64,000 nt of DNA from the NCBI GenBank assembly GCA_963779925.1, contig CAVZZS010000002.1, positions 540-64,539 of the forward strand. The letters run 5' to 3'. Positions 46,750 through 50,018 of this stretch are shown in pieces. Source of the DNA: an uncultured Nanoarchaeota archaeon (GTDB lineage: Archaea > Nanobdellota > Nanobdellia > Pacearchaeales > GW2011-AR1). Made by a program: the position numbers and the translations under genes. Each line of letters opens with the position of its first letter. Position 1 is the stretch's first letter. Under the pieces are notes generated by a model. That model had not been told where the DNA came from. It did not search any database and saw nothing but the letters and a program-made list of their open reading frames with translations.

Positions 46750-47163
46750 ATGGATAATATTGAAAAAGCGACACGCTATTTGACTTTTAATTCTGTTTCT
46801 AATTTACTTGAAGCGAGACGAAATCCTGATGAAATTGATAAGTTAAAAATAGATACCGCACAGGATTGCTTCGAAGAATATGCAAAAGGATTGGAAGGTT
46901 TCTTTAGCCAGCAAGTTTCTTTTTTAGATATTAGGGAAGTTATAAGAGCTTTTGGCTGGAACTTTGAGAATACCAGTAAAAAAATTAGAAGTGACCAGAG
47001 CCAGTTATTAAGAGAATATCAGTTGCGATTAGAAAAATTAAGAAATAACCCTGCTATTTTTTATTTGGATACATGGAGTTATGGATGTTTATTAGAGACC
47101 TGCAAAAAATTAAGCAGTCTATATGATGATAAAGGCGCTTTGATGATAAAAGCGGGGTATTAA
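46750..47163 (+). CDS. Hypothetical protein (137 aa)
   Basis: ORF with a tataaaaa octamer at 46721-46728. Confidence 0.4.
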   Translation: MDNIEKATRYLTFNSVSNLLEARRNPDEIDKLKIDTAQDCFEEYAKGLEGFFSQQVSFLDIREVIRAFGWNFENTSKKIRSDQSQLLREYQLRLEKLRNNPAIFYLDTWSYGCLLETCKKLSSLYDDKGALMIKAGY

Positions 47164-50018
47164 GCCCTCAAACTAATTACCTTGCTTACTCCATCATTCA
47201 TGCTTACTCCATAAAGATTTGTCGCATTCAATATAATATCATCATTATGAGAGGTCACAATATACTGCCCCTTTTCCATGTATTTCTTCAATAGGATTGC
47301 AAGCTTCTCTGAATTCCTTTTATCAAGAGCCGCATCAATTTCATCAAGCAAATAGAAAGGATAAGGCTTCAATTCCTGTATTGCAAATATCAATGATAGG
47401 GCCACAAGAGTCTGCTCTCCTCCTGAAAGAGAAGCAACATCAAAGTATTTTCCATGCCCCGTTTTTAAGATTACATTTACCCCGCCTTCAAATGGCTCCT
47501 GCTTGTTCTCTATTTCTAGAGATACCTGCCCCTTGGAATTCAATTCTGAAAAGTTCTTTGAGAATATCTCATTTAGTGAATTGAAGGTCTTCAGGAAAGT
47601 CTTCTTTTTTCTGAAATCAATTTCTTTTATGACGTCCAGAATATTCTGCTTTTCTCCATCAATTATAATCATTTTCTCCTTTATCGAGTCATATTCTTTT
47701 TTGACAGAATCATAGACTTCAAGAGAACGCAGATTCACAGACCCTATATTCGACAAAATTTCCTGGGTCTTAAGAAGCCGCTCTACGAGCGATTCCCTAT
47801 TTGTCTTTATTTTTTCAACTCCTTCAAATCCCTGCAATTCTATCTTAAGATTCTCAAATTCAGCATTGAATTTAGCCTCTTCAATTTTCAAATTGTTTAT
47901 GTCCTGCTCTATATTGTAGGTCTTATTCTGATGCTGGGACAATTCAATCTGCTTGTCCCTTACATTCTTCTGCAGCTCATCCCTCTCAGAGATTAATTTC
48001 CTGAATCTTTCTGTAAGAATTTCTTCCTCTTTTCTCTTTCCATCAAGAACAGTATTCCTTTCTCTTATAGAATTTTTGAAACCGGAAATTTCGCCTTTCA
48101 GTTCTTCTTCATTTCCCACTAATTGCCTCAGAGAAGATTTTATTCTCTCAATTTCCCTTTGCTTGAAAGTAATTTCTGAGCCAAGATCTTCTTCATCAAT
48201 AAGAGGAATATCCTGCACCCTTAACCTTAATTCTTCGTATCTCTTTTCAATATCGGAGTCCGCATCTACCTGCTTTCCGAGGTAGGATTTCTTTTTCTCA
48301 ACTTCTGCAATTTCTTTGTTTAAGGATTCTATTTTCTCCTGCAGATTCTTTATCTGATTCTTCTTGTCTTCAATTTTGGACATTATCATAAAATCAGATT
48401 CGCGCTTTGATATTTCTGCATTCGTATCTTCAATTTCCTGCCTTAACATTTTCTTTCTATGTATAATCTCGCCAAGATTCGCATCCGCTTTTTCTATCTC
48501 CCTTTTCAAGGATTCAATTTTCTCCGAAGTTTCTTTGCTTATCGAATGGACATGCTCTTCGGTAATTTTGTTTTTGCAGACAGGGCAGATATCCATTTTA
48601 GAGATCTTAACTATCAAATTATTCTGATTGTCAATCTCATGCTCATTGGAATAAGTTATCTTTTCAAGCTTCAGCTCTTCCTTCTCGATATTTTCAAGCA
48701 ATTCTTTTTTCTCCAATAATGAGACTTTCAGATGATCAAGCAGAGATTGATCTGTTTTTTTGTCAAACAAATCTTTTGCAAGAGACTTAATCTGTTCGAG
48801 CAGAAATTTTGATTCTTGGTAGTATCCTTTTAATATCAATTGCTTGTCTTCCAATCTTTCCTGAATTGTCTTAAATTCTGATTTTATAAGATAGAATTTT
48901 CGCCTTTGAAGCTCCAGACTTTCAAGCTCGCTGTTTTTCTGCTCTATATCTTTTCTTTTTACAACCGTCTTGGGATTTTCCTTCCGCATTTTTTCGATAT
49001 CAGAATTTAATTCAGCCAGATTTTTATTCGAGGTTTCTTTTTGCCTCAAGATTTCCTTCAGCCTGTTTTCATTCCCTTCCAGCCTTGCATTCAGAGTCGC
49101 CAATTCTGCCCTCAGGTCTGTAATCTCCTGATTGAGCTTCTCCTGCTCCAATCCAGTAGAGGTCTGGATTCTGGAATTCATTGAAATGATTTTTGATTCT
49201 ATGTTGCTGATCAAATTTTGTGTATTGAGTATTTCTTTTTTTACCTTGTCTTTATCCTTATTTCTTTCAGAGATTTTGGCTTTGACTTCTTCCACTTCTT
49301 TTTCTTTTTTCATCAAATCAGAATAGATTATGCTTGCCTTGAATTTTTTGACATCTTCCTCAAGTTTTTTGAATTTCAATGCCTGCTGCCTTTCTTTCTC
49401 GAGATTATTCATGTAAGCTGTTCTCTCCCTCAGGATTGTGGAAATTTCTTTTAATCTTTCATCTGTCTTATCCAGTTCTTTCAAGGACTTCTCTTTTCTT
49501 ATCTCATAGATTGAAATTCCCGCTATTTCTTCTATGATTTTTCTTCTTTCTTCTGTATGCATTTTCACGAAATTCTGTATCTCCCCCTGGAGGATTATGT
49601 TGAATCCGTTAGGATCTATTCCCGCCTGAGCCAGCAATGAAAGAACATCTTGCCTTGTTTTTGCTTCATCATTTATCTTGTATATTCCCTGCCCATTTTT
49701 TCTTACAATCCTTGTGATAGAAATCTCGTCTTTGTCTATGCTGAAAGTCTTGTCTGAATTGTCAAATACCAGTTCCACAAAGGCTTCTCCTGCCCCGCCC
49801 ACAAATTTATTTCCCTGAAAAATAAGATTGCTTGATTTTGAGGCTCTCATTGATTTGGCATTCAATCTTCCAAAAACAAAACAAAGCGCATCAGTTATAT
49901 TGCTCTTACCAGAACCATTTGGGCCCATAATCACGTTTATTTTGGGAACAAAGGGAATTTCTGTTTTTTTTGCAAAACTCTTGAATCCTTTCATCACCAA
50001 TTTTTTTATGTAAGTCAT
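47160..50018 (-). CDS. smc: SMC-family ATPase lacking a hinge domain, with a central CPVC zinc-hook motif
   Basis: N-terminal head: KGFKSF...[21 protein letters not shown]...MRAS...LIFQG...ILQGEIQNF...[11 protein letters not shown]. C-terminal head: [36 protein letters not shown]. The middle is continuous coiled coil with [12 protein letters not shown] at residues 478-489 of 952 (CPVC = nt 48576-48587). Confidence 0.85.
   Translation of the reverse strand: [952 protein letters not shown]

Follow-up and report, generated by a model that had tools for sequence, protein, structure and literature searches.

A Rad50-type zinc hook in place of the hinge in the probable condensin ATPase of a nanoarchaeal lineage

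Introduction

Members of the SMC (structural maintenance of chromosomes) superfamily are commonly told apart by their apex and their partners. In a 2023 review SMC is defined by the hinge and a kleisin, and Rad50 by the hook and the Mre11 nuclease (PMC10586767). What the hinge does beyond joining two chains is a matter of debate in which DNA binding, a DNA entry gate and contact with the heads have all been considered, and the sole direct test so far has been an engineered Bacillus subtilis chimera. In this protein, Smc(Zh), the hinge was replaced by the zinc hook of Pyrococcus furiosus Rad50, as in the construct smc(1-480, Pf Rad50 zinc hook, 691-1186). The cells grew normally, and a correct arm length was required (Buermann et al., 2017, PMC5344682). 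The reverse swap, the MukB hinge in Schizosaccharomyces pombe Rad50, was also functional (PMC6969161), and together these experiments indicate that an SMC with a hook is a workable design. In this study, we describe an smc gene of an uncultured Nanoarchaeota archaeon (assembly GCA_963779925.1, contig CAVZZS010000002.1, positions 540 to 64,539; this whole stretch of 64,000 nucleotides is called the window below). Its product has the heads and arms of an SMC and carries a Rad50-type zinc hook where the hinge would be expected.

Zinc hooks outside Rad50 have been reported in ASRP/ClsN/Sph (PMC9389158) and in LmuB (PMC10586767); the heads of these proteins are divergent and miss the SMC models. 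Loss of the hinge has been described for a "hinge-less" SMC clade without a CXXC motif in marine metagenomes, where it was treated as new biology (Sussfeld et al., 2025, PMC12153180). No account of a natural hook-bearing SMC was found in the open-access literature, and two comparative-genomics papers on DPANN archaea are silent on both SMC and Rad50. A preceding reading of the window, made from the letters alone (the sequence-only reading), had taken the architecture to be undescribed for a canonical SMC. Within that literature this holds for natural proteins, but not for engineered ones, as the functional Smc(Zh) was published in 2017 (PMC5344682). The modules are known ones, in a combination that has not been described in nature.

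SMC heads and coiled-coil arms

The gene lies on the reverse strand (Table 1). Its open reading frame (ORF) opens with an ATG codon and encodes 952 amino acids (aa), only three of which are cysteines (C46, C478 and C481). The codons of the Cys478-Pro-Val-Cys481 motif (CPVC) occupy nucleotides (nt) 48576-48587, at the exact midpoint of the protein. Length, position and residues agree with the sequence-only reading, as does its assignment of both head halves to the SMC family. Pfam SMC_N covers residues 3-945 of the hook SMC with 181 bits. Among the NCBIfam models, SMC_prok_A (TIGR02169) scored 512.2 bits and SMC_prok_B (TIGR02168) 493.8 bits, followed by 102 bits for the best Rad50 model (NF003034), 98.8 for ASRP and 42 for arcadin-4. 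The equivalog cut-offs of the Rad50 models (700-1087 bits) were not reached, nor was that of ASRP (NF045487, 300 bits), which matched partial stretches only. A sequence search of the PDB placed the Pyrococcus Smc head 5xei first (E 9.8e-99), with Pyrococcus Smc heads ranging from 1e-98 to 1e-81 and the best Rad50 head at 3e-12. All ATPase motifs, including the Walker B glutamate, are intact and invariant in an alignment of 114 homologues. The heads of the hook protein are canonical SMC heads. The preceding reading had allowed that they might prove closer to Rad50/SbcC and be accompanied by an mre11 partner; the scores (about 500 against 102 bits) and the absence of an Mre11/SbcD gene next to smc in the window and at 80 related loci speak otherwise.

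No globular hinge was found. The SMC_hinge model PF06470 matched neither the whole hook SMC nor the central segments of 32 family members. A hinge hidden Markov model (HMM) made from relatives detected hinges in hinge SMCs at all lengths from about 810 to 1,800 aa and found none in the hook class. A full-length AlphaFold2 model was built from 114 homologues as a single chain without metal (predicted local distance difference test score, pLDDT, 76.5). Between residues 169 and 826 it contains helices only, with no globular middle; at the apex, helices 424-474 and 487-586 flank a short non-helical loop (475-486). The lack of a globular hinge that had been read from the letters is thus upheld by both profiles and by the model, and the center gave no significant SMC_hinge match that could have contradicted it.

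The arms, too, are of SMC type. Positions 1-467 of TIGR02169 align to residues 3-460 of the hook SMC. The closest case in the arm alignment with hinge SMCs is P0151 (1133 aa, hinge at 498-637), in which residues 2-473 of the hook SMC correspond to 2-478, and 487-951 to 652-1132. The arms are therefore collinear with hinge-SMC arms right up to the hook (N-terminal arm to 473, C-terminal arm from 487), and about 173 residues of the hinge protein are represented by about 13. Relative to typical hinge SMCs, the arms are shorter by about 26-28 residues per strand. In the AlphaFold2 model the breaks of the two strands, at about residues 341-357 and 601-613, are about equally far from the hook.

The zinc hook

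The Rad50 zinc hook model PF04423 scored 21.8 bits on the whole hook SMC, below its cut-off of 24.3 bits. Applied to residues 430-530 alone (101 aa), it scored 26.4 bits (E 6e-06) and passed the cut-off, and it matched the central segment in 29 of 32 family members. A separate model of the apex (101 residues, pLDDT 93.8) folded as helix-loop-helix. When this model was compared with 350,542 PDB chains using Foldseek, the top match was 1l8d_B, the zinc hook of P. furiosus Rad50, with template modeling (TM) scores of 0.85/0.84, a root-mean-square deviation of 2.8 A and a probability of 1.00. The top five also included 1l8d_A, the human Rad50 hook 5gox_A and the Pyrococcus rod form 6zff_A. Searches of PDB sequences were less informative: the 87-aa apex on its own matched nothing significantly, and a profile of 32 apex sequences reached 1l8d with E 0.43, ranked below BRCA1 RING fingers. 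The hook is too short for such searches, and the Pfam segment scan and the fold search are decisive. The profile alignment, with its non-significant E, sets the family consensus CPlCkskiTeeH on CPVCGRELTDEH of P. furiosus Rad50.

Sequence and fold thus both mark the hook as Rad50-type, and the likeness to the Pyrococcus Rad50 hook, which the sequence-only reading had pointed out, is now backed by a PF04423 match above threshold and by 1l8d_B as the top fold match. Each chain contributes two cysteines at the apex, so that tetrahedral coordination of zinc needs two chains. We infer from this count and from homology that the hook binds zinc and that the protein forms homodimers through it.

Conservation, spread and origin of the hook

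In each of the 120 best homologues, whose identity to the hook SMC of the window is 59-100%, the motif C-P-[VLI]-C-K-x-x-[IVM]-T-x-x-H occurs a single time, at 0.498-0.507 of the length, and 87 of these proteins have exactly 952 aa. C478, P479, C481, K482, T486 and H489 are invariant in the 114 aligned homologues. Conservation of the core extends further. Among representatives of clusters at 50% identity, all full-length proteins (946-1023 residues) that could be aligned over their whole length have a central C-P-x-C, and the motif is kept to an overall identity as low as 38%. When 28 diverse apex regions were aligned, the two cysteines and the proline were the sole invariant columns, and identity in the flanks fell to 17-30%. 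A CxxC that varied among orthologues would have spoken against a hook; it proved invariant to 38% identity.

A hook-profile scan of one genome per GTDB species identified relatives in at least 191 genomes. The scan was seeded with the narrower of two apex alignments, as the broad one was too divergent, which makes 191 a lower bound that is biased towards close relatives. Among the best 80 of the 191 genomes, the depositors' labels are Woesearchaeota, Pacearchaeota, Nanoarchaeota and Nanoarchaeia, apart from a single "Omnitrophota" and a single "Iainarchaeum" record. Hook-SMC contigs are also filed as "Candidatus Omnitrophota bacterium", "Patescibacteria group bacterium" and "Candidatus Iainarchaeum" (DATJPO010000036.1 and JBDRJG010000005.1, loci L002 and L075, and protein P0099). 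Wrong binning or labelling of Nanoarchaeota contigs in public metagenome-assembled genomes is the probable cause. Public automatic annotation calls hook SMCs plainly "chromosome segregation protein SMC", by which the difference between hook and hinge is hidden.

A neighbor-joining distance tree of the heads only (111 full-length representatives, 329 columns) placed 18 hook SMCs and four SMCs of about 800 aa in one clan, apart from 80 hinge SMCs, with a bootstrap of 192/200. A hook-only grouping was never recovered, because the short forms nest inside the hook clan. The clan lies among DPANN hinge SMCs; its distances (0.6-0.7) continue from theirs without a long separate branch, and the hinge SMCs nearest to it are labelled Woesearchaeota. 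This topology agrees with a single loss of the hinge among DPANN SMCs, after which some branches may secondarily have lost the hook. The hook itself may have come from a rad50-like or ASRP-like gene through recombination.

Gene neighborhood and ScpA

The window is archaeal DNA and also codes for archaeal RNA polymerase subunits, EF-2, DnaG and class II ribonucleotide reductase. The neighbors of smc had been read as RNase HII and a hypothetical gene, with no mre11 nearby. This was confirmed: RNase HII lies at 50057-50725, and the ORF at 46747-47163 has no family match. At 64 of 80 related loci smc has an RNase HII gene directly before it in the same orientation, and the rnhB-smc pair suggests co-transcription of a replication/repair nuclease with the condensin ATPase. 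The 138-aa ORF that overlaps the end of smc had a homologue at 1 of the 80 loci and may be specific to the lineage, or may not be a genuine gene. Downstream of smc, a convergent surface-protein gene was found at 50 of the 80 loci and dnaG at 45, followed by EF-1alpha and other housekeeping genes. The copy in the window (45490-46668) probably encodes an S-layer or surface protein. A surface-protein gene of the same type flanks the hinge SMCs P0158 and P0159. At another locus (L084), an 804-aa short form with neither hook nor hinge (6001-8415) has RNase HII upstream and a surface-protein gene downstream. These common flanks argue for positional orthology of hook SMCs, hinge SMCs and short forms.

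No Mre11/SbcD-like gene was found in the window or among the conserved neighbors of the 80 related loci. A further SMC-like ORF was seen neither in the window (E <= 1) nor in the flanks of these loci, which amount to about 1 Mb. The kleisin gene that the sequence-only reading had placed at 17500-18420 passes the PF02616 cut-off with 45 bits. Homologues of this ScpA come from Nanoarchaeota, Pacearchaeota and Nanoarchaeia. In GCA_028718305.1, contig JAQUMD010000001.1 (601,538 bp) carries both a hook SMC (254,866-257,724) and ScpA (approximately 291,023-292,030), 33 kb apart. Matches to hook SMC and to ScpA were also found on contigs of equal size (613,568 bp; 143,647 bp). No ScpB-like ORF was noticed beside scpA in the window; a genome-wide search was not made.

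Table 1. Coordinates in the window of the hook SMC gene, its parts and the genes discussed with it
Feature	Position (nt)	Strand	Basis
smc, 952-aa SMC with zinc hook instead of hinge	47160..50018	-	ORF, SMC_N, SMC_prok_A, Pyrococcus Smc head
ATPase head, N-terminal half (aa 1-168)	49515..50018	-	aligns to Pyrococcus Smc head residues 1-182; strands and helices 4-166 in model
Walker A GPNGSGKS (aa 32-39); R58; Q-loop Q144	49902-49925 (Walker A)	-	invariant, 114 homologues
Coiled-coil arm, N-terminal strand (aa 169-474), break at about aa 341-357	48597..49514	-	AlphaFold2 helices 169-340, 358-415, 424-474
Zinc hook apex (aa 475-489)	48552..48596	-	PF04423, invariant residues, apex model, 1l8d_B fold match
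Coiled-coil arm, C-terminal strand (aa 490-826), break at about aa 601-613	47541..48551	-	AlphaFold2 helices 487-586, 590-600, 614-729, 741-758, 765-826
ATPase head, C-terminal half (aa 827-952)	47160..47540	-	matches C-terminal halves of Pyrococcus Smc heads 3kta_B, 1xew_Y
Signature LSGGEQ (aa 864-869)	47412-47429	-	invariant, 114 homologues
Walker B FYLLDE (aa 888-893); H-loop H924	47340-47357 (Walker B)	-	invariant, 114 homologues
rnhB (RNase HII), directly upstream of smc, 38-nt gap	50057..50725	-	PF01351, 149.5 bits
Probable surface protein, 392 aa, signal-like N-terminus, C-terminal transmembrane anchor	45490-46668	+	weak NPCBM_assoc/FixG_C/MG2
138-aa ORF, convergent, end overlaps smc stop codon by 4 nt	46747-47163	+	no Pfam/PADLOC match
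scpA (kleisin), about 29 kb from smc, presumed partner of the SMC heads	17500..18420	-	PF02616 SMC_ScpA, 45.1 bits (cut-off 24.6)

Variants among relatives

Several relatives depart from the usual layout. Two hook SMCs, P0124 (1479 aa) and P0132 (1483 aa), have an insertion of about 530 residues after the equivalent of residue 37, inside the Walker A sequence GPNGSGKS. The insertion of P0124 matches Intein_splicing (98 bits) and LAGLIDADG_3 (83 bits). Hinge SMCs of about 1660-1800 aa (P0163, P0168, P0172 and others) have a P-loop insertion too. By these sequence matches, hook and hinge SMCs alike carry a predicted intein with homing endonuclease in the P-loop; the smc gene of the window has no intein.

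Among hinge-bearing proteins we observed "mini-SMCs" of 810-844 aa (P0198, P0206, P0210, P0216, P0222, P0238, P0241, P0257 and P0267) and of 943-963 aa (P0155, P0162 and P0236), with arms shorter than usual by about 160 or about 100 residues per strand. PF06470 scored 107-116 bits in those checked (P0198, P0155 and P0162). Their lengths seem to form discrete classes, reminiscent of the periodic arm-length rule from B. subtilis truncation screens. Outside the hook clade there are also SMC_N proteins with neither a hinge match nor a CxxC: P0213 (838 aa), P0226 (770), P0242 (754), P0263 (726) and P0264 (926), and, at about 1470-1500 aa, P0240, P0253, P0256 and P0262. Some of these may belong to the marine "hinge-less" clade (PMC12153180).

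Functional interpretation

Taken together, the protein is probably the ordinary smc product of its lineage, the ATPase of an Smc-ScpA condensin whose globular hinge has given way to a Rad50-type zinc hook. Each 952-aa chain would fold back on itself, so that its two ends make one ABC ATPase head and the part between them an antiparallel coiled-coil arm (about 300 residues per strand) with the C-P-V-C loop at the tip. Two chains would be joined tip to tip via one zinc ion, each supplying two of the four cysteines that hold it. If the ScpA kleisin bridges both heads, a ring of the same kind as that of a hinge SMC would result, and ATP binding and hydrolysis at the heads would drive DNA entrapment and translocation as in Smc-ScpAB. 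A condensin-like SMC/ScpA complex had been proposed in the sequence-only reading, and the co-occurrence of the two genes supports it; zinc binding, homodimerization and ScpA binding are expected from homology, and a condensin function is likewise expected.

Some observations weigh against this interpretation. The hook SMC stays under the NCBIfam equivalog cut-offs for SMC (512 against 729.4 bits for TIGR02169, 493.8 against 567.35 for TIGR02168), as is expected if the hinge part of the profile is unmatched. H489 is invariant in close relatives and lost in distant ones. Four proteins in the hook clade, P0140 (804 aa), P0143 (801), P0144 (779) and P0146 (781), have neither PF06470 nor CxxC, which means that the hook is not indispensable for every member. 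These short forms, one of which is PIU75690.1 (Pacearchaeota), lack approximately residues 355 to 503 of the window protein, and their apex is a helical stretch of about 90 residues with more hydrophobic residues. ScpA was never found within 10 kb of smc at the 80 related loci (spacing 29-33 kb), so the SMC/ScpA pairing rests on co-occurrence. Finally, the checks for a second SMC and for Rad50-Mre11 reached the window and the locus flanks, not whole genomes.

The last point bears on two other explanations. One is that the hook protein is an accessory paralogue of the coalescin/ASRP kind and not the condensin of the cell, a normal hinge SMC being encoded elsewhere. Extra chromosome organizers with a zinc hook do exist in Archaea (ClsN/Sph and ASRP; PMC9389158), the ASRP model is matched in part (98.8 bits), and the search for further SMCs had the reach just given. 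We nevertheless consider this explanation unlikely: the ASRP score is far under the 300-bit cut-off whereas the SMC models reach about 500 bits, the arms are of full length and collinear with SMC arms, and the housekeeping context is partly common to hinge SMCs of related lineages. The clan also sits among the DPANN hinge SMCs at distances of 0.6-0.7 and without a long branch of its own, and neither the 64-kb window nor about 1 Mb of flanks contains a further SMC-like ORF. The other is a DNA-end repair ATPase of the Rad50/SbcC type, with Mre11 elsewhere and heads that are merely SMC-like. The hook and the weak full-length Rad50 matches (NF003034, 102 bits) would agree with it. It is highly improbable given that the heads match Smc about 85 orders of magnitude better than Rad50 in the PDB, that the cut-offs of 700-1087 bits are widely missed, that neither the window nor the conserved neighbors at 80 loci include an Mre11/SbcD-like gene, and that a kleisin is encoded in the genome.

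The CxxC loop might instead be no more than a stabilized hairpin turn, or a single-chain zinc or redox site, with dimerization elsewhere or absent. The nested relatives of about 800 aa look intact without the motif, and the hook dimer follows from homology and a single-chain model without metal. Two conserved apex cysteines are, however, too few for a zinc site in one chain, and H489 is lost in distant members; moreover, the apex matches in fold and sequence the Rad50 hook, which serves to coordinate zinc between chains, and SMC function requires a dimer, all of which leaves this explanation very unlikely. A part in anti-plasmid or anti-phage defense, as for Lamassu LmuB or Wadjet JetC, was suggested by PADLOC matches (mad3, 186 bits, to the C-terminal head only; LmuB, 87 bits; JetC, 41 bits) and by the CPxCG hook of many LmuB proteins (PMC10586767). 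The matches are generic ABC and coiled-coil ones and far weaker than the SMC match, and the neighbors at most loci are rnhB, dnaG, EF-1alpha and the surface protein, with no LmuA/LmuC or JetABD; on these two grounds the defense reading was rejected. The Walker B glutamate is invariant, whereas LmuB generally has an E-to-Q change there (PMC10586767), and a single copy with conserved synteny in at least 191 species is the pattern of a core gene, not of a defense island. A defense role is extremely improbable.

With the protein taken as the Smc-ScpA ATPase, we lean towards the view that the whole species-rich lineage (Nanoarchaeota in the sense that includes Pace- and Woesearchaeota) runs its only condensin on a hook, and that nested sub-lineages have swapped the hook for a short helical apex and shortened the arms. 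If so, the apex module of SMC would be freely exchangeable in evolution, and no hinge-specific activity (DNA binding, a DNA gate or hinge-head contact) would be needed for the core SMC-kleisin mechanism. More speculatively, the hook might also bridge complexes or DNA ends and so take over part of the role of Rad50 in reduced genomes. The small, cysteine-poor protein, with its three cysteines, is suited to biochemical and structural work.

Comparison with known systems

The occurrence of SMC heads, arms and a kleisin together with a Rad50-type hook means that the two defining features of the superfamily can separate in nature. Like canonical Smc (TIGR02169/TIGR02168; Pyrococcus Smc 5xei, 4i99), the hook SMC has the ABC head motifs, ScpA in the genome, a housekeeping context and full-length antiparallel arms that are collinear including their interruptions, and its closest relatives are DPANN hinge SMCs. 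Unlike canonical Smc, it has a 13-residue CPxC hook in place of a hinge of about 140-170 residues, is about 200 residues shorter and falls below the equivalog cut-off. In contrast to Smc-ScpAB, ScpB was not found in its window.

With Rad50/SbcC (PF04423; 1l8d, 6zff, 5gox) the protein shares a C-P-x-C hook that caps an antiparallel coiled coil, with a fold match of TM 0.85, and its extended motif CPxCxxx[IL]TxEH matches CPVCGRELTDEH of P. furiosus Rad50; it differs by its SMC-type heads, a kleisin in the genome and the lack of an Mre11/SbcD neighbor. ASRP (ClsN/coalescin, Sph1/2; PMC9389158) is likewise an archaeal SMC-superfamily ATPase with a zinc hook and is thought to organize chromosomes. 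However, the ASRP profile (NF045487) has 593 positions and ASRP heads are divergent, whereas the hook SMC has 952 aa and scores about 500 bits with the SMC models. The "hinge-less" clade (PMC12153180) also comprises natural SMC-type proteins without a hinge, but that clade branches in Bacteria (Actinobacteria-like) and has no hook, while the archaeal apex is a defined Rad50-type hook.

The design is close to that of Smc(Zh), which likewise joins SMC heads and SMC arms to a Rad50-type hook. The requirement for correct arm length in the chimera has its parallel in the fixed length of the natural family (87 of 120 at 952 aa), a constraint that fits the idea that arm geometry matters, rather than the identity of the dimerization domain. 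Unlike the chimera, which is man-made, bacterial and equipped with a transplanted piece of Rad50 coiled coil, the archaeal hook SMC is natural and lineage-wide, and ancient enough for hook members to differ in up to about 60% of their sequence. It is a natural counterpart to the chimera, kept across at least 191 species and extremely constrained in length.

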